This document shows positions 51,847 to 58,074 of a stretch of 64,000 nucleotides of DNA, piece after piece; position 1 is the stretch's first letter, and every line of letters begins with the position of its first letter. The notes beneath the pieces are model-generated. The model did not search any database and was not told the origin of the DNA. It was given only the letters and a program-made list of their open reading frames with translations. This DNA is from a virus (Duplodnaviria; Heunggongvirae; Uroviricota; Caudoviricetes): IMG/VR virus record IMGVR_UViG_2541047938_000006; one strand, written 5' to 3'. Made by a program: the position numbers and the translations under genes.

Positions 51847-52284
51847 TCACGACGGGGAGAACATCAATCCCTCTGCACTCCCTCGCCAGAATGCCAGCAC
51901 ACGCTGCATCGTTTCGCTGTTACGGCACTCGCGACAAATTGTGTTGTAGCGTCTGTCGTAGCGCCGTATTTCCCCATCTGGTAATGCCCGGATAAGGTCT
52001 GGATCAACGACAACCGGTTTCTTCGACTTTGCCCTTGAGAGTTTTTTGCGGGCATTTTGCCAGTCCTTACGAGCCTGTTCAGACGGGAATACTCCGTAAC
52101 CGGAATTGTAAACATCACCACTGGCGGCCAGCTCCATGCATAAACGACCGACAGACGCATGACTGACACCAATTTCATCCGATAACTGCCGAATCGTGCC
52201 TCGTCCGTTAAGGCGTACGAATTCCACGATCAGCCCCTTAATTTTTTCCCGCTCTTCTGGTGTAAATGCTCTTGTCATAAGCAC
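51847..52284 (-). CDS. HTH-domain phage protein
   Basis: 145-aa ORF with predicted HTH (IRQLSDEIGVSHASVGRL). Confidence 0.4.
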   Translation of the reverse strand: MLMTRAFTPEEREKIKGLIVEFVRLNGRGTIRQLSDEIGVSHASVGRLCMELAASGDVYNSGYGVFPSEQARKDWQNARKKLSRAKSKKPVVVDPDLIRALPDGEIRRYDRRYNTICRECRNSETMQRVLAFWRGSAEGLMFSPS

Positions 52285-52293
52285 CTCCGGAGA

Positions 52294-53064
52294 TCACTTT
52301 GTTGTCGGTGAATGAACCGGAATATCAGCAATCGAACTGAAAATATCCCGGTGTTTATTCAGCTCCCGCAGCGCGGCGCAGACTCGCTCCCACTTCTGAA
52401 CATCACTTTTCGCCCTGCGCAGCGCCAGGTTTGCCCTGCGCAGGGACGGAAAAATCAGCTCATCTGCTTGCGTTTCGGTAAACGATGGCAACGACTGCAC
52501 AATGTCCGCCACAGTTTCTGTTTTAATTTCTTCCTGTGTTGCGGCTTCCCGGACTGGTAACGCAGCACCTGCTGGCTGAGGAAAGGCCTTACCATCATTT
52601 TCCGTTACCGGCGCGGTTTTCGGATCTGCTGGTAAATTACCCCCCGGCATGCAGTAACGAAATTTACCGTTCTGATTAACGCGTGCCAGCCGCCCCGTTG
52701 CGGTTACCACCGCCAGCGTGGAAGCAACCTTGCGAGTGGTAACTCCGAACTTACCCGCTATTTCTTCACAGGTTTTAGCCCCCTCCTGAGAGATAAACTC
52801 AATCATCATGTCAGCGCTAACTTTTGGAGCGACCTCTTCGGTCAGCATATCCTGTGTTTCAGATTTTACTGGCCGCTCTTCGGTTACCTGGGATTCACCT
52901 TCGACAGCCAGAAACCAGGTGTGACCCGTTTTATCAACAACGCCATTTTTTTTGAGTTCCCACAGTTCGTTGAGAACTTCTTCACGGCTGATATCAAGCC
53001 GCGCCGCCAGTTCAACAGAATTGGCTTTTCCCATCGCTTTCAGTGCATACAATACGGTTTCCAT
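52294..53064 (-). CDS. Hypothetical phage protein with winged-helix-like N-terminus
   Basis: 256-aa ORF downstream of helicase loader gene. Confidence 0.4.
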   Translation of the reverse strand: METVLYALKAMGKANSVELAARLDISREEVLNELWELKKNGVVDKTGHTWFLAVEGESQVTEERPVKSETQDMLTEEVAPKVSADMMIEFISQEGAKTCEEIAGKFGVTTRKVASTLAVVTATGRLARVNQNGKFRYCMPGGNLPADPKTAPVTENDGKAFPQPAGAALPVREAATQEEIKTETVADIVQSLPSFTETQADELIFPSLRRANLALRRAKSDVQKWERVCAALRELNKHRDIFSSIADIPVHSPTTK

Positions 53065-53089
53065 CGAAAATTTACCTCGTCAAAAATTC

Positions 53090-53830
53090 TCACATACCCT
53101 GACGTCCAACGTTTGACCGCCAGCTCTCCCAGTTAAAATTCACCCAACGACCACCATTCATGGTCATACGGTCCATCACTCGCTCCCCCAGAAGCCTGCT
53201 CATCGCACCGTGATTCAGGTTAGTCAGCATCCCGACACTGCGCAGTGATGCCGTTCTGCGGTCGACGATCTGGTTCAGTATGACCTGCTCGTTGCGCGTA
53301 TCCCGCTGCATGCCAATTTCATCAAGGACCAGAAGGTCAACTCCACAAAGCTCCTGTAAAAATTTTTCCCCGGACTTGCCGTTGTCGTAGCCGTCATGCA
53401 ACACACTCATGACATCGGACACGGTGACGATAATCACGCTTCTCCCCTTCGCCATTAGCCAGTTGCCAATCGCTGCTGCAAGGTGATTTTTCCCGGTGCC
53501 AGGTTTACCGCTGAACACGAAATTCGTGCAGCCGGTATGCAGCTCTGCCGCGATGGATTTTGCCTGACTCAGAGCATGGCGCTGACCGTCGTTCTGCACC
53601 CGGTAGTTCCCGAATGAGCACTTCCTGTGAAGCGGCTGGATGCCCGAACGGTTCAGGATTTTTTCAACCCGCGCCTGATGATTCAGGCGGTTAATTTCCT
53701 CGCTGCGCTTACGGCCCTCAGCCAGTTGCCATTCCCGCCATTCGTCGGTCGTCCGGAACGGTGCTGCCACGTGCGGTGGTGCCAGACGGCGCACCCGTTC
53801 AAGAATCCCTCCTGTCGAAATGTTTTTCAT
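53090..53830 (-). CDS. Replicative helicase loader (DnaC-like AAA+ ATPase)
   Basis: 246 aa with Walker A GKPGTGKNHLAAAIG and Walker B LLVLDEIG. Confidence 0.8.
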   Translation of the reverse strand: MKNISTGGILERVRRLAPPHVAAPFRTTDEWREWQLAEGRKRSEEINRLNHQARVEKILNRSGIQPLHRKCSFGNYRVQNDGQRHALSQAKSIAAELHTGCTNFVFSGKPGTGKNHLAAAIGNWLMAKGRSVIIVTVSDVMSVLHDGYDNGKSGEKFLQELCGVDLLVLDEIGMQRDTRNEQVILNQIVDRRTASLRSVGMLTNLNHGAMSRLLGERVMDRMTMNGGRWVNFNWESWRSNVGRQGM

Positions 53831-53836
53831 GGCTGA

Positions 53837-54925
53837 TTACCCCCTGAAACCCGGCGGAATTTCGGTGTCCGGTTCAGAAATGTGATTCACGCAACGCAGG
53901 CTGACTGCGCCAGCCTTCGGCAGCGACCACGGATTTTCGAAATTCCTGTTCGGGCCAAAAAACGTCGATGCCTGCTGAACAAATTCAGTTCCCGCTTTCC
54001 CGGTAGCCTCCAGGTATCTTGCGTAACGCCTCACGCCATCCAGCACGACATCCGGTGACACCCCTTCGCGTAATCTGGCCCTCCAGGCATTGAACGCGGA
54101 TTTCTTCGGGTTTGACCCTGCCCGATGCGGATATTCACGCCAGACCCGTTCGAACACGTCAGGATAATCAACTCGTCCCGCAGACGGTCCCGGCATCGCC
54201 CGGGTTAACCCAATCGGCTTCCCGCTCATCGCGGAATCGGCTTCAGGCTGCTGCGGTTGGCGTTGTTGCTCCGGTTCGACGATCAGCACCTGCTGCACAC
54301 AACGCCCGGAATCTGCTTCCGGTGTCGTGCCAGCTGGTCCTGGACGTTCAGTCAGAACAGGACAAAAATCCCCCTGCGGGTCCGTGGCGATTTTTTCGCC
54401 ATGGACCAGAAGGGTTTTATCCCTTTCCTGTTCTTGTTCTTGTTCCTGTTCCTGTTCTTGGCTTGAAAGGGGCTCTGAAGGGGCTTCAATTTTCCGACAT
54501 GATTCACGTCTGACATCCAGGTGGAAATCATCCTTATATCTATCATAAAAGGATGATAAAAAAGGATTTTCCAGCAACGCGGAATATTCATTTCTTACCC
54601 CAGCACAACGGTTATCGCCAGGTTTCAGCGATTCACCAACCTGCCATGCTGCCATTTCATGCACCCATACAACCTCAGAATCATGGTCATAGCTGCAAAA
54701 ACCAGCCTCGCAAGCCATTTGAAGCCCCTTAGAAGCCCCTTCAGGAGCAAGTCCGGTTTCGTGAGCAATGTACAAAACAGGCAGGTAATAAAGGCCCAGC
54801 ATATTGGAATGAGGCGAGGTCATCATATACAACGCCACTACCATACATTCCGGACCAGACTTCCTTAGTTTTCGCCCTGTATCGCCTAACCAGAACTGAG
54901 GTGAAATTGTTGCGTAATTACGCAT
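53837..54925 (-). CDS. Replication initiation protein (O-like) with internal (EQ)n repeat
   Basis: 362-aa ORF upstream of helicase loader; hexanucleotide repeats 54420-54460 encode SQEQEQEQEQEQE; contains one copy of a 60-bp repeat. Confidence 0.55.
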   Translation of the reverse strand: MRNYATISPQFWLGDTGRKLRKSGPECMVVALYMMTSPHSNMLGLYYLPVLYIAHETGLAPEGASKGLQMACEAGFCSYDHDSEVVWVHEMAAWQVGESLKPGDNRCAGVRNEYSALLENPFLSSFYDRYKDDFHLDVRRESCRKIEAPSEPLSSQEQEQEQEQEQERDKTLLVHGEKIATDPQGDFCPVLTERPGPAGTTPEADSGRCVQQVLIVEPEQQRQPQQPEADSAMSGKPIGLTRAMPGPSAGRVDYPDVFERVWREYPHRAGSNPKKSAFNAWRARLREGVSPDVVLDGVRRYARYLEATGKAGTEFVQQASTFFGPNRNFENPWSLPKAGAVSLRCVNHISEPDTEIPPGFRG

Positions 54926-54954
54926 AGTCCCCTCGCATACAAGATTTACTCCAT

Positions 54955-55130
54955 ACCGCAGACGGTCCCGGTATCTCCCGGGTTAACCCAATCGGCTTCA
55001 GGCTGCTGCGGTTGGTGTGACTGCACATTGGTGTGACTGCACATCTTCACAGACGGTCCCGGTATCTCCGGGTTAACCCAATCGGCTTCAGGCTGCTGCG
55101 GTTGGTGTTGTTGCTGGCGAAATTCTTCCA
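54955..55130. repeat. Two tandem about 60-80-bp repeats upstream of replication gene, homologous to an internal segment of that gene (54180-54275)
   Basis: CAGACGGTCCCGGTATCTCC(C)GGGTTAACCCAATCGGCTTCAGGCTGCTGCGGTTGGTG occurs at about 54957 and 55048, related copy inside the gene. Confidence 0.6.
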
Positions 55131-55178
55131 GATGTGGCAGAATTATTCCCGTGTATTGCTCCATGCCCTGCCTGAATA

Positions 55179-55475
55179 TCAGATATTCATCAGGATTTGC
55201 TCAGAACGTCCGGCCCCAACCGGACGTTTTTTATTTGCATGAACGTTAATGGCATGCTGGAAAGCCCGGCTGATCGGACTGATATCAGATGCCATCTGAA
55301 ACGCGCATAAAATCGCCGCGATGTATCGCCAGTCGGTACGACTGACCTTCGATTCATGGCAGCCAATCATCTTCGCCAGTCCCCTTTGCGTCAGAGCTGA
55401 CAGGTTGATAAGTAAATCCGTTTCAGCGCGATCGATATCGCGCTGTGACAGTTTGCTGTAACTTGTTTGTGACAT
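55179..55475 (-). CDS. cII: CII-like transcriptional activator
   Basis: 98 aa; C-terminal ...NKKRPVGAGRSEQILMNI resembles recalled lambda CII ...NKKRPAATERSEQIQMEF. Confidence 0.7.
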   Translation of the reverse strand: MSQTSYSKLSQRDIDRAETDLLINLSALTQRGLAKMIGCHESKVSRTDWRYIAAILCAFQMASDISPISRAFQHAINVHANKKRPVGAGRSEQILMNI

Positions 55476-55543
55476 TTGTTAATTTTCCTATATTGATATG
55501 GGGTTAAGCGGCAATCCCCAATGGGTTTGCCACTGATGTTTGC

Positions 55544-55584
55544 TCACCCTGTTAGAGGTGAACGACCAGCAATGTTAAAGAGCG
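55544..55584 (-). promoter_or_regulatory. nutR-like site (boxA CGCTCTTTAACA + boxB hairpin)
   Basis: On minus strand CGCTCTTTAACATT followed by hairpin TCACC-N8-GGTGA, between cro and cII. Confidence 0.5.
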
Positions 55585-55591
55585 GTGTTAC

Positions 55592-55815
55592 TTATTCAGC
55601 CTGGTTCGGATGAGGAAACAGGTGCGGTAAGTCCGGGCGAATTTCGTAAGCCTTAACCTGACCATTGGTGGCATTAACGATAGCGAAAACTTTTTCAGGA
55701 GAAACTTTTCCGCCTCGCAACCATTTATGAACAGCGGGCTGTGATACGCCGCAATCAGCTGCAAGTCGTTTTTGACTGCCAACAATATTCAAGGCTCGCT
55801 GAATCACTAAATTCA
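55592..55815 (-). CDS. cro: Cro-like repressor
   Basis: About 74 aa from MNLVIQ...; HTH (QKRLAADCGVSQPAVHKWL); divergent from cI. Confidence 0.65.
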
Positions 55816-55851
55816 TGAGCATACCTCTACAGCAAATAAAGCATAACCAAA

Positions 55852-55914
55852 AATAACATGAGTTATACACCAGGGCAATAACAATTGTTGTTTTACTTTT
55901 GATAACCGTGGTTA
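55852..55914. promoter_or_regulatory. OR operator cluster: three 14-bp palindromes ATAAC-N4-GTTAT
   Basis: ATAACATGAGTTAT (55852-55865), ATAACAATTGTTGT (55877-55890), ATAACCGTGGTTAT (55901-55914), spaced 24-25 bp, between cro and cI. Confidence 0.55.
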
Positions 55915-55926
55915 TAGATTACAGGT

Positions 55927-56634
55927 ATGAAAACATTCGCAGAAAGACTAAATGCCGCCATGAGTTCAGCCGGGTTGTCACAAGCACAACTTGCAGACAT
56001 GGTGGGGGTATCACAACCAGCCATACAAAAGATGTCATCTGGTAAAACAACCGGATCACGTAAAATGGTCGAATTAGCCAACGCGTTAAGAGTTCGCCCT
56101 GAATGGCTAAGCTCTGGTATAGGGTCAATGAGACCACAGAGCGCAGAAGAGCCATCTAATGCTCGGGAATCATCTTTAAAAGCTATCGCCTGGGATGATC
56201 ATCAAAATGATAATGACGAATTTGTTGCGCTCCCCCTTCTAAATATTTCACTTTCAGCTGGCGGAGGAAGTTGTGCATTGGAGGAGTCCGCAGAATTCTC
56301 TCTAGTTTTTAGGCGCTATTACCTGAAAAAAATGGGAGTTCCAGAAAAAGCGGCAAAGTTGGTCAGGGTTGTTGGGCAAAGCATGGAGCCAACACTCCAT
56401 GATGGTGATGTGGTGGGGGTAAACACGCAAGATACGAGCATCAGGGATGGTAAAACATATGCAATTTGCCAAGCTGATTTGTTAAGGGTAAAAACGCTCA
56501 TAGCCACGCCAACATCGGTAATTATCAGATCGATAAACCGCGAAGAGTATCCTGATGAAGTAATGAACAGAGAAGAATTCTACAAAAACGTAAGAATCAT
56601 AGGGCGAGTGTTCTGGTCATCACATAGCTGGTAA
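55927..56634 (+). CDS. cI: CI repressor (HTH + S24 LexA-like autopeptidase domain)
   Basis: 235 aa; N-terminal HTH; C-terminal GQSMEPT Ser motif and downstream Lys. Confidence 0.9.
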   Translation: MKTFAERLNAAMSSAGLSQAQLADMVGVSQPAIQKMSSGKTTGSRKMVELANALRVRPEWLSSGIGSMRPQSAEEPSNARESSLKAIAWDDHQNDNDEFVALPLLNISLSAGGGSCALEESAEFSLVFRRYYLKKMGVPEKAAKLVRVVGQSMEPTLHDGDVVGVNTQDTSIRDGKTYAICQADLLRVKTLIATPTSVIIRSINREEYPDEVMNREEFYKNVRIIGRVFWSSHSW

Positions 56635-56757
56635 TCAGACTCCAACTGAACTTTTGCTATAAGAACACTCACGAAGAACGGCCTTTTATTGTGCTCAATA
56701 CCACCGATGGTAAACCATTCGCCAAGTAGCCAATTCATAAAATGCCATTTCTAAATC

Positions 56758-56785
56758 CCCCGGCTCCAGTGCCGGGTTTTATTTA
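56758..56785 (+). terminator. Intrinsic terminator after cI
   Basis: Hairpin CCCGGC-TCCAGT-GCCGGG followed by TTTTATTT. Confidence 0.55.
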
Positions 56786-56786
56786 C

Positions 56787-57008
56787 TTAATTACACAGTC
56801 GCATATCCTGAAGTAACACATCTATAGCTAACTTCACAGCGAGATCATCCAATTCATCATGGTGAAGCACTCGGATCATTCCCGCAATAGCATCTGCTGA
56901 AATAGCTTCCCCAGTAGCAATAACCTCAAGCAACGACACCCCTAGAATTTCGACTACCCGCTGGTGCAACACACCAAATTCCCCTTCGATTAACATGCAA
57001 TCACCCAT
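56787..57008 (-). CDS. Hypothetical small acidic protein between cI and N, opposite strand
   Basis: About 73 aa from MGDCMLIEG with RBS GGAAAGG; occupies the position where lambda carries rexAB. Confidence 0.3.
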   Translation of the reverse strand: MGDCMLIEGEFGVLHQRVVEILGVSLLEVIATGEAISADAIAGMIRVLHHDELDDLAVKLAIDVLLQDMRLCN

Positions 57009-57128
57009 AACAATCAGCCTTTCCCCCTTGAAAATATCACGCGGATACCACAAAAAATAAAATATTTTTGTTATCAGTCATTTATAACGTTTTTCATAAA
57101 ATGATAAATATAGTTATTGTACAACCAG

Positions 57129-57142
57129 ATAACTTAGGTTAT
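57129..57142. promoter_or_regulatory. OL operator (ATAACTTAGGTTAT) plus flanking degenerate half-sites
   Basis: Same ATAAC-N4-GTTAT palindrome as OR; additional GTTAT/ATAAC half-sites at 57070-57133. Confidence 0.5.
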
Positions 57143-57191
57143 CTTCAATTCAACAGCAGGACGCTGGAAGCCAAACGGAACAGATTGGCCG

Positions 57192-57231
57192 GCTCTTTAA
57201 CATTGATGGACTCTCAACCTAACCGTTGAGA
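57192..57231 (+). promoter_or_regulatory. nutL-like site (boxA GCTCTTTAACA + boxB hairpin)
   Basis: GCTCTTTAACA at 57192-57202 followed by hairpin TCTCAAC-CTAACC-GTTGAGA, upstream of N. Confidence 0.55.
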
Positions 57232-57341
57232 CCAAAATCTAAGTGATTTTGGGGATGACGCGAATTTCAGTTGCAAGGCCGCGATCGAGAAGAAAAACAC
57301 CTCGACGCGTCATACACCAAAGCCACTTAAAGGAGACCATC

Positions 57342-57647
57342 ATGGTAACCATAATCTGGAAAGAATCCAAAGGTACGGCAAAAAGCCGCTATAAAGCTCG
57401 CAGGGAAGAACTTATTGCAGAGCGACGCAGTAGTGAAAGACTGACACGGAAGATTGCGCTAAAGATCTCTGGTTGCGTCGGAGCAGACAAAGCAGTATCA
57501 CTCGGAAGCCTTCGCTGCAAGAAGGCAGAAGAAGTCGAGAGTAAACAGAACCGTATTTACTACCGCAAACCACGCAGTGAAATGGGTGTGACTTGCTCAG
57601 GCCGCCAGAAACAACGCGGAAAATCAATTCCGGCTTATTACGATTGA
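57342..57647 (+). CDS. N: N-like antitermination protein (Arg-rich motif)
   Basis: 102 aa from ATG 57342 (RBS AGGAGA); Arg-rich N-terminus KSRYKARREELIAERRSSERLTRK; first gene after nutL. Confidence 0.55.
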   Translation: MVTIIWKESKGTAKSRYKARREELIAERRSSERLTRKIALKISGCVGADKAVSLGSLRCKKAEEVESKQNRIYYRKPRSEMGVTCSGRQKQRGKSIPAYYD

Positions 57648-57655
57648 GGTTAATG

Positions 57656-57937
57656 ATGAAGTTCAAATTGAACGATGAAGTTAAATGGTCAAGCTCATCA
57701 AACGGTGTAACGAAGGTAAAAATCGGGTTTATCGTCGAGGTGATTCCTCCTGGTGTCAACGTAAAAAAATTCGAACTAGGCCGTCTGCTAGATGCACCTG
57801 GCCTTCCGAGGAAAGAAGAGAGCTATATAGTTTGTGTAGGTTCAAGACCCGGATCTCGTGCCAAGCCAAAATATTACTGGCCGCGAGTTAATAACCTGCG
57901 TCGATTACAACAAAAAACTTGCGCCCTTAAAACTTGA
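57656..57937 (+). CDS. Hypothetical early protein
   Basis: About 93 aa, RBS GAGG upstream. Confidence 0.35.
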   Translation: MKFKLNDEVKWSSSSNGVTKVKIGFIVEVIPPGVNVKKFELGRLLDAPGLPRKEESYIVCVGSRPGSRAKPKYYWPRVNNLRRLQQKTCALKT

Positions 57938-58074
57938 AATTCTTCAGGCCGCCGGAAAAATGCAGCTTAAACTGGACGAATTCATCGACTGTATGGATGA
58001 AATGAATAAAGCAGTTCAGAAGCTTAAAGAGCTGACCGCCTGATATTAATAAATTGCAACTACCGGAGTTAACT

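Follow-up and report, generated by a model that had tools for sequence, protein, structure and literature searches.

In the virus record IMGVR_UViG_2541047938_000006 (Caudoviricetes), of which a stretch of 64,000 nucleotides (nt), hereafter called the window, was analysed, the genes cI, a cro-like gene and cII are followed by a small open reading frame (ORF), here named ORF72, by the gene of a replication initiator of the 'Eru4' type, which we call rep, and by the gene of the initiator's partner, a helicase loader. The window has a 100% match in a prophage of E. coli NCTC9112. A sequence-only reading of this locus had singled out a run of hexamers in rep that encodes (EQ)n and a 60-base-pair (bp) segment of the same gene that recurs twice just upstream of its start, and had offered these repeats as either origin iterons or the product of a recent slippage or duplication at the replication origin. 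Both the hexamer run (54425-54460, encoding (QE)6) and the short repeating ORF upstream of rep (54946-55164 on the minus strand, 72 amino acids) are present. Here we describe the initiator, a set of 10-mers lying within its gene that are stronger iteron candidates, and the two flagged repeats.

The rep product consists of an N-domain (residues 1-155), a linker (149-249) and a C-domain (250-340). In an AlphaFold model built with 66 sequences, residues 10-148 and 250-340 were modelled with confidence and residues 149-249 had a predicted local distance difference test score (pLDDT) below 50; the N-domain is predicted to adopt a winged-helix DNA-binding fold and the linker, of about 100 residues, is predicted to be disordered. 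Since the linker coincides with the region of pLDDT below 50, both flagged features that lie within the gene sit in this predicted disordered linker. No Pfam match was found for rep, either as a whole protein at E <= 0.01 or as separate domains at E <= 10, the N-domain family is contained in neither Pfam nor NCBIfam, a sequence search of the PDB found nothing, and Phage_rep_O (PF04492) was matched neither by rep nor by any of its 66 aligned relatives. The profile matched by rep is phrog_1701. The N-domain alone retrieved 3935 representatives of 50%-identity clusters at E <= 1e-3 and was found in phages of Acinetobacter, Klebsiella, Ralstonia and Escherichia, unannotated in all of them. The C-module, which begins at about residue 170 (53837-54318), is present at about 82% nt identity in some 2500 E. 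coli genomes and is joined elsewhere to other N-domains, namely 'phage replisome organizer' and HTH_36. Judging from its sequence, rep encodes a modular phage initiator with a lambda O-like layout and a DnaC-like loader gene next to it, and is not a homologue of lambda O. The name 'O-like' given to the gene by the sequence-only reading suits its position and role, after cII and before the loader gene, and does not extend to homology. The C-terminal tail of rep (residues 339-362, ISEPDTEIPPGFRG; 53837-53908) is invariant among relatives and weakly resembles the C-terminus of DnaT (NCBIfam NF002770, E = 0.0093, far below the cut-off).

Searching the window for the exact 10-mer GAAGCCCCTT gave three occurrences, all of them within rep. 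Two occurrences make up a first cluster (A), and the third, at 54478-54487 and in the opposite orientation, forms a second cluster (B) together with a degenerate neighbour at 54467-54476. When 69 distinct loci of the family (367,820 nt) were surveyed for this 10-mer with at most one mismatch, 238 of the 290 matches fell at +160..260 or +400..500 of the gene, and 98 of the 102 spacings between neighbours were of 11 nt. Cluster A lies on the coding strand in 61 of the 65 loci with matches there, the other four having both orientations; 45 loci have cluster B inverted and 20 have it direct. Because of the 11-nt period, successive 10-mers are read in different frames. Wobble entropy, calculated over 65 loci with 36-70% GC, amounts to 0-0.49 bit inside the 10-mers versus 1.7-1.9 bit in the 1-nt spacer and the flanking codons, and inside the 10-mers glycine is written GGG, alanine GCT and leucine CTT even at 70% GC. 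As these codon comparisons demonstrate, the constraint on the AAGGGGCTTC 10-mers acts on the DNA and not on the encoded protein.

The stretch between the two clusters is AT-rich, with an AT fraction of 0.75 over the 40 nt centred on about +380 (about 54545); across the family an AT-rich peak falls at +360..+400, and the mean excess is highest (+0.12) near +380. A 13-nt inverted repeat, ATCATCCTTATAT and ATAAAAGGATGAT with a spacer of 5 nt (54527-54557), lies in the most AT-rich part of this stretch. Variant N-domains are accompanied by variant motifs with the layout kept, AAAGCCTTT in locus L106 and GAAGGGTTT in L107, and the unrelated replisome-organizer N-domain of L006 has the motif CGTGAC in the same layout. 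In these three sharers of the C-module (L006, 3102-3455; L106, 1658-2022; L107, 1659-1992), two intragenic clusters lie about 250-260 nt apart with a phasing of 11-12 nt. From the co-variation of the motif with the N-domain, together with the predicted winged-helix fold, we judge the 10-mers to be the probable cognate binding sites of the initiator. The properties found for AAGGGGCTTC are those of iterons: multiple copies, helical phasing, a conserved position, constraint at the DNA level and co-variation with the N-domain. In the AlphaFold model the codons of cluster A correspond to the start of helix 61-73, the third helix, which precedes the beta wing; this is the usual position of a recognition helix, and in that case the DNA recognised would itself code for the putative recognition helix. 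In the literature the 20-mer was found in no paper, and the 10-mers, among ten listed of 127 matches, only in unrelated ones. The comparative data place the origin probably inside the coding region of the N-domain, with the two AAGGGGCTTC clusters flanking the AT-rich patch and the (EQ)n run abutting cluster B.

This run was reported by Tandem Repeats Finder as TTCCTG x5.5 (54425-54460), and its minus strand encodes QEQEQEQEQEQE, residues 156-167 of rep. It is separated from cluster B by 7 nt, and the placement of the flagged features 'at the replication origin' is, in a loose sense, probably right. The run counts 4, 5, 6 or 8 QE pairs in the 19 close relatives that have an intact rep, and the length of rep varies accordingly from 358 to 366 amino acids. 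A (QE)4-10 run is found at the same place in 64 of the 69 distinct family loci, from hosts of 36-70% GC, which makes it a hallmark of the family and not an accident of one lineage. In low-GC hosts glutamine is encoded by CAG in 63% of the tract codons versus 10% of the N-domain codons, a bias that hints at, without proving, an effect at the DNA level or of homogenisation, and the purine-rich peak of the family sits on the tract. Analogous tandem hinges are found on other N-domain types, (TDKD)n in L006 and (PE)n in L107, and the downstream cluster abuts the hinge in each case, CGTGAC next to (TDKD)n, AAAGCCTTT next to (QE)n and GAAGGGTTT next to (PE)n. We read the (EQ)n run, which was observed to vary in length, as an acidic hinge prone to slippage, and it may have a further role at the DNA level next to the candidate iterons.

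The other flagged element has a core of about 55-62 nt in three copies. The statement that a 60-bp segment of the gene recurs twice upstream held in that three copies could be aligned; the copy within the gene is not a simple one, as it has 23 additional nt flanked by two direct repeats, GAAGCCGATT, and the tandem unit measures 90 nt. The two upstream copies have 41 nt in common at 100% identity, and their 90-nt period is composed of a 55-nt core and a 35-nt junction, within which a 16-nt tandem, TTGGTGTGACTGCACA x2, occupies 55012-55043. Owing to the 23-nt insert of the in-gene copy and to a 1-nt deletion in the distal one, the copies are read in different frames, as PEADWVNPGDTG, PEADWVNPEIPGPSV and PEADSAMSGKPIGLTRAMPGPSAG. 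Chance is excluded by the identity of the copies, 92-100% over 41-53 nt, and by the recurrence of the arrangement in independent phage and complete E. coli genomes. An assembly artefact was ruled out as well, complete genomes and independent phage records carrying the same alleles. RNA folding of the units and of the in-gene segment revealed no significant structure (z = -1.3 to +0.1), and a structured-RNA reading of the units was dropped on these scores. Motifs resembling DnaA boxes or IHF sites, looked for by eye in the 16-nt tandem and in the GGGTTAACCC palindrome, matched at best 6 of 9 positions.

The number of upstream copies differs among related loci: one in L008-L012 and L018, two in the window, L001-L004, L017 and L019-L022, and three in L013-L016. 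One (L018), two (L017) or three copies (L014 and L015) are carried by loci that match the window at 100% over nt 1-450 of rep. Of 81 complete E. coli genomes, 60 were listed; the two-copy span is found in 46 of these and the one-copy span in 6, and TOE17 has three copies. The sequence-only reading had called for such a comparison with related prophages, and one-, two- and three-copy alleles were obtained from it, complete genomes included; its suggestion of a recent slippage or duplication is supported by the variation of the run between 4 and 8 EQ pairs and by the occurrence of 1-3 upstream units in prophages with an identical 5' 450 nt of rep. The variable units are those of variable-number tandem repeats (VNTRs): a 90-nt unit in one to three copies, a 16-nt unit whose variants give ORF72 alleles of 88 and 76 amino acids, and a 6-nt unit in four to eight copies.

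In L005, L023-L030 and L032, whose rep is about 70% identical, no upstream copy is present and only the first 20 nt of the core are kept in the gene; the upstream array is also absent from distant relatives that keep the 10-mer clusters. Compared with the relatives of about 70% identity, the in-gene copy of the window lineage carries a compensated -1/+1 frameshift by which 16 residues were rewritten, an indication that the linker tolerates such changes. The -1 deletion and the +1 insertion are 47 nt apart (54178-54240, residues ~229-249) and convert IQREADWVVPENTGQSV into MSGKPIGLTRAMPGPSA, and a CCCGG...CCGGG inverted repeat in the DNA survives the rewriting. Since the upstream copies bear the bases specific to this lineage, they are derived from the in-gene copy or exchange sequence with it. 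A diverged allele (L105; E. coli 23CRST047/049; 1300-1760) carries the 23-nt insert in each of its three units, which are 113 nt long, and its private substitution CCTGATGCC is found in all three upstream copies and in the in-gene copy, a pattern that indicates concerted evolution of the copies. In another locus (L104; E. coli SW071619 and SW07163; 1480-1660) an upstream copy has recombined cleanly with the one inside the gene, and about 780 bp that comprised the N-domain, the (QE) run and both 10-mer clusters are deleted; there rep is annotated as a pseudogene missing its N-terminus.

ORF72 repeats QPQQPEADWVNP and matches phrog_2751, a family of unknown function, at E = 4e-55; no match was found in Pfam or NCBIfam, and a homologue search found none outside a narrow lineage. 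Its homologues exist as alleles of 42, 46, 51, 58, 62, 72, 76, 88 and 102 amino acids with shifted frames, and these lengths map to one to three 90-nt units, to gains and losses of the 16-nt unit and to frameshifts. In L105 the ORF72 frame stops after 45 codons and no coding sequence (CDS) is annotated across the array. Judging from these alleles, ORF72 is probably no conserved protein but either a leader ORF or an incidental product of the array. The first frame of the array stops 20 nt before the ATG of rep, the second ends at a TAA overlapping rep codons 2-3 and the third continues in frame into rep; as all three end at or near the rep start or enter rep, a sequence-independent leader, or translational coupling, is possible. 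The 5' end of ORF72 overlaps an oop-like antisense unit. The intrinsic terminator of this unit (55203-55236; an 11-bp stem at 55203-55230 plus a T run) aligns with the lambda oop terminator, and its TGgCAGAAT (55135-55143) aligns with TGtCATAAT of lambda pO, with a -35 of only 3/6 and no call by a generic promoter scan. A scan of 52000-58000 against Rfam at E <= 1 gave no family, and the oop-like unit matched no Rfam model. A reading of the N-terminal part of ORF72 as a remnant of lambda O was set aside, the alignment with lambda past the cII stop being too weak to decide.

Table 1. Position of the genes, repeats and candidate origin elements of the replication region, in window coordinates.
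Feature	Position	Strand	Remarks
DUF1627	52294-53064	-	
DnaC/YdaV-like helicase-loader gene, partner of the initiator	53090-53830	-	PF01695; NF009043, E = 6e-148
rep, replication initiator of 362 amino acids ('Eru4' type)	53837-54925	-	
In-gene copy of the repeated segment, linker residues ~217-249	54178-54275	-	23-nt internal direct duplication; against the linkers of other phages, a compensated frameshift
Hexanucleotide microsatellite (CARGAR)n, coding for (QE)6	54425-54460	-	Hinge right after the DNA-binding domain; Tandem Repeats Finder
Candidate iteron cluster B, AAGGGGCTCT + AAGGGGCTTC	54467-54487	+	Orientation opposite to A; end of the N-domain coding region
AT-rich patch between the clusters	54520-54575	.	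Candidate unwinding element; includes the inverted repeat 54527-54557
Candidate iteron cluster A, GAAGCCCCTT x2	54721-54741	+	11-nt spacing; codons 62-68
ORF72	54946-55164	-	72 amino acids; phrog_2751
Proximal upstream copy of the repeated segment	54956-55020	-	
35-nt junction of the 90-nt unit	55012-55049	-	Includes 16-nt tandem TGTGCAGTCACACCAA x2; absent in one-copy alleles
Distal upstream copy of the repeated segment	55050-55116	-	1-nt deletion shifting the frame
Oop-like antisense unit	55135-55236	+	pO-like extended -10 (putative promoter); terminator in the 3' end of cII
cII	55179-55475	-	PF05269
cro-like gene	55592-55870	-	
cI	55927-56634	+	

Taken together, we consider it likely that one of the flagged repeats is a hinge of variable length and the other a duplicate of linker DNA that varies in copy number, that neither represents origin repeats, and that the origin is formed by the 10-mers within rep. 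According to this hypothesis, the (EQ)n run, an in-frame acidic hinge, would change in length by replication slippage. A segment coding for the linker would have been copied into the interval between the lambda-like cII/oop region and the ribosome-binding site of rep, and the inserted copy would then have been amplified to a 90-nt tandem array of one to three copies. The comparative sequences show that dispersed and tandem copies exchange by gene conversion, unequal crossing-over and occasional deletion. The ORF across the array would be unconstrained as a protein and could at most act as a translated leader ending at the rep start. Several points speak against this hypothesis or weaken it. 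Each copy of the repeated segment holds AATCGGCTTC, an 8/10 match to the candidate 10-mer and always in one orientation, and the array has been kept in the lineage of L105, diverged by about 10%, which could reflect a function. Some of the one-copy loci come from short-read assemblies, in which the repeat may have collapsed; six complete genomes have the one-copy span as well. The first 28 codons of ORF72 show 0 synonymous versus 7 non-synonymous differences in two comparisons in which cII plus the N-domain of rep show 30 versus 10, a contrast made up of only 7 codon differences in partly non-independent comparisons. A regulatory effect of copy number is possible, since the array is placed immediately upstream of the pO-like promoter and immediately ahead of the ribosome-binding site of rep. 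Finally, nothing is known about the Eru replication proteins according to PMC8951638.

The alternative closest to the sequence-only reading makes the 60-bp segments part of the origin, either as iterons or as auxiliary sites bound by the initiator, which could act in titration or handcuffing or as an enhancer. It is favoured by the presence of three to four copies beside and within the initiator gene, by the AATCGGCTTC of each copy, by the homogenisation of the copies through gene conversion and their retention in the diverged lineage, and by the true 10-mers found just upstream of the start codon in some distant members (20 matches at -100..0). However, the two positions at which AATCGGCTTC departs from the 10-mer, G3 and G4, do not vary in any of 65 loci, the 90-nt period lacks helical phasing, and prophages that are nearly identical carry one to three copies. 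No upstream copy exists in any relative of about 70% identity, although these have the same DNA-binding domain, nor in the distant members with 10-mer clusters, and the in-gene segment belongs to a linker and C-module common to initiators with unrelated DNA-binding domains and different iterons. Repeats that are absent, or variable in number without effect, in otherwise identical prophages had been named by the sequence-only reading as what would refute it, and of these conditions the absence and the variability were seen. The flagged 60-bp/90-nt repeats are probably not initiator-binding iterons, since they do not track the DNA-binding domain, are restricted to a lineage, vary in copy number and come from a module of initiators with other specificities; we regard a role as origin sites as very unlikely. 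The AAGGGGCTTC clusters themselves could be imagined as an RNA-level element, with long-range pairing of A and B in the rep mRNA, instead of DNA iterons, because in 45 loci, the window included, B is the reverse complement of A and a helix of about 20 bp enclosing about 240 nt could form. Yet in the 20 loci with B in the orientation of A such pairing is impossible, the strict 11-nt phasing of two to four copies is a hallmark of binding to one face of the DNA, and both the variation of the motif along with the N-domain and the predicted DNA-binding fold of that domain argue against it, so that we find this explanation extremely improbable.

Two further alternatives concern the array upstream of rep. 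That ORF72 is a real small protein of the replication/lysogeny module could be argued from its PHROG family, from its annotation as a CDS in all close phage records and from its ATG, which is preceded by AGG 6 nt upstream and lies 14 nt past the cII stop; the variation of its length and frame (42-102 amino acids), the premature stop in L105, the excess of non-synonymous differences relative to its neighbours, the narrow distribution and the lack of Pfam and NCBIfam matches make such a protein highly unlikely in our opinion. Alternatively, the array may be a cis-regulatory leader in which translation is coupled to the start of rep, length sets the distance between pO/oop and rep, and copy number tunes initiator expression. 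The way in which its three frames end before, at or within rep is compatible with a leader, as is the oop-like terminator with its pO-like -10, which align with lambda and abut the distal copy, and a leader independent of sequence would explain the absence of constraint at the protein level. On the other hand, relatives of the same family, such as L005, have no such leader, the RNA structure of the units is not significant, and the promoter assignment consists of an alignment and a weak -35; a leader of this kind seems to us unlikely. A broader reading, in which the elements would act jointly, is tentative and in our view rather doubtful: the locus would be an undescribed intragenic origin with sites in the codons of the recognition helix and domain boundary, a DNA-active (QE)n and repeats used as recombination handles. 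The codons for the putative recognition helix and for the domain boundary may at the same time spell out the 11-nt-phased 10-mers; besides forming a hinge in the protein, the (QE)n run may have a part in the DNA, as a spacer or unwinding element rich in purines and comparable to the tract beside the iterons of lambda, and its slippage would then tune the geometry of the origin; and in the Eru4 lineage of Shiga toxin (Stx) phages, the linker-derived direct repeats may bracket a cassette of N-domain and origin as handles for its loss or exchange.

The reading that we prefer, 10-mers as the origin and the flagged repeats as hinge and linker duplicate, concerns a replication module already known by name. 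The stretch from cII through ORF72 and rep to dnaC is 98% identical to that of the Shigella phages 75/02 Stx and POCJ13 and of the Escherichia phages PhiR5_2 and phiSTEC1589-Stx1c. The Shigella phage 75/02 Stx is the reference of the Eru4 replication module (Fagerlund et al. 2022, PMC8951638), and it agrees with the window in gene order and at 98.3% nt identity over 1682 nt, which assigns the window to Eru4. This module was classed by gene identity alone, with its first protein given as 'unknown function' and its second as 'putative helicase' (PMC8951638), and neither origin nor repeats are described in the Eru papers, that one included. The same two-copy interval from cII through the array to rep occurs at 99.6% identity in E. 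coli of the O104:H4 outbreak lineage (HUSEC2011, 2009EL-2050, 2009EL-2071 and others). At the cro position, the top Pfam match is YdaS_toxin (E = 4e-18), above Cro and P22_Cro; the ORF called there (55592-55870, minus strand) has a GTG start and 92 amino acids, versus 66-79 in the annotation of close relatives. As ordinary products of slippage, duplication and gene conversion, the flagged repeats are removed from the list of origin candidates; they are still useful as typing markers, and they document a route to defective prophages. In their place a concrete candidate origin is proposed for the Eru4 class of Shiga-toxin phages, which extends to a large uncharacterised family of initiators in phages of Escherichia, Klebsiella, Acinetobacter and Ralstonia and in prophages of Betaproteobacteria. 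The type of replication module has been linked to the stability of lysogens, as shown for Eru1 phages, and an influence on Stx output and virulence has been proposed (PMC8044961; PMC8951638). Knowledge of the cis-acting origin would permit experiments with mini-replicons and inhibitors.

Compared with known systems, the locus most resembles lambda O and its origin. It has in common with lambda the order cro-cII-(oop antisense)-initiator-loader, a homologous cII 3' end and oop terminator, and a two-domain initiator with a flexible linker. As in ori-lambda, the candidate iterons of the window lie within the initiator gene, at the end of the DNA-binding domain, and adjoin an AT-rich patch, and the (EQ)n tract beside cluster B is purine-rich; lambda has a single AT- and purine-rich tract after its iteron 4. 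This lambda O-type trait, intragenic iterons beside an AT-rich region, was recognised in the window from comparative sequence alone. The differences are as clear: rep has no sequence homology to Phage_rep_O, its partner is DnaC-like (PF01695) and not lambda P, lambda has four sites of about 18 bp in one cluster whereas the window has 10-mers with 11-nt phasing in two clusters about 250 bp apart, and lambda has no counterpart of the flagged 60-bp repeats.

A second likeness is with the E. coli 'phage replisome organizer' initiators of Rac-like prophages (for example phage Tritos TRITO_36) and with organizers of the SPP1 G38P type, which have their linker and C-terminal domain in common with the window protein. 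SPP1 G38P binds repeats within its own gene (oriL). The replisome-organizer locus L006 likewise has two intragenic iteron clusters, 260 nt apart, one of them abutting a tandem-repeat hinge; unlike the window, the replisome organizers have another N-terminal domain, the iteron CGTGAC, a (TDKD)n hinge with a 12-nt unit and no upstream array derived from the linker. The flagged repeats, for their part, resemble the VNTRs of bacteria and prophages, with head-to-tail units of 6, 16 and 90 nt, copy-number polymorphism in nearly identical genomes and in-frame slippage in a coding region predicted to be disordered. They differ from these in that the 90-nt array has its paralogue in a segment of the neighbouring gene, with which it exchanges sequence, and in that (QE)n has been retained across a family of thousands of cluster representatives. 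By analogy, the system of the window would work like lambda O/ori-lambda and the replisome organizers in having its origin within a gene, a modular initiator and a loader next to it, without being a member of either by sequence. The candidate origin is then new as an instance and not as a concept, and the flagged features belong to known kinds, a hinge microsatellite and a VNTR derived from the linker.

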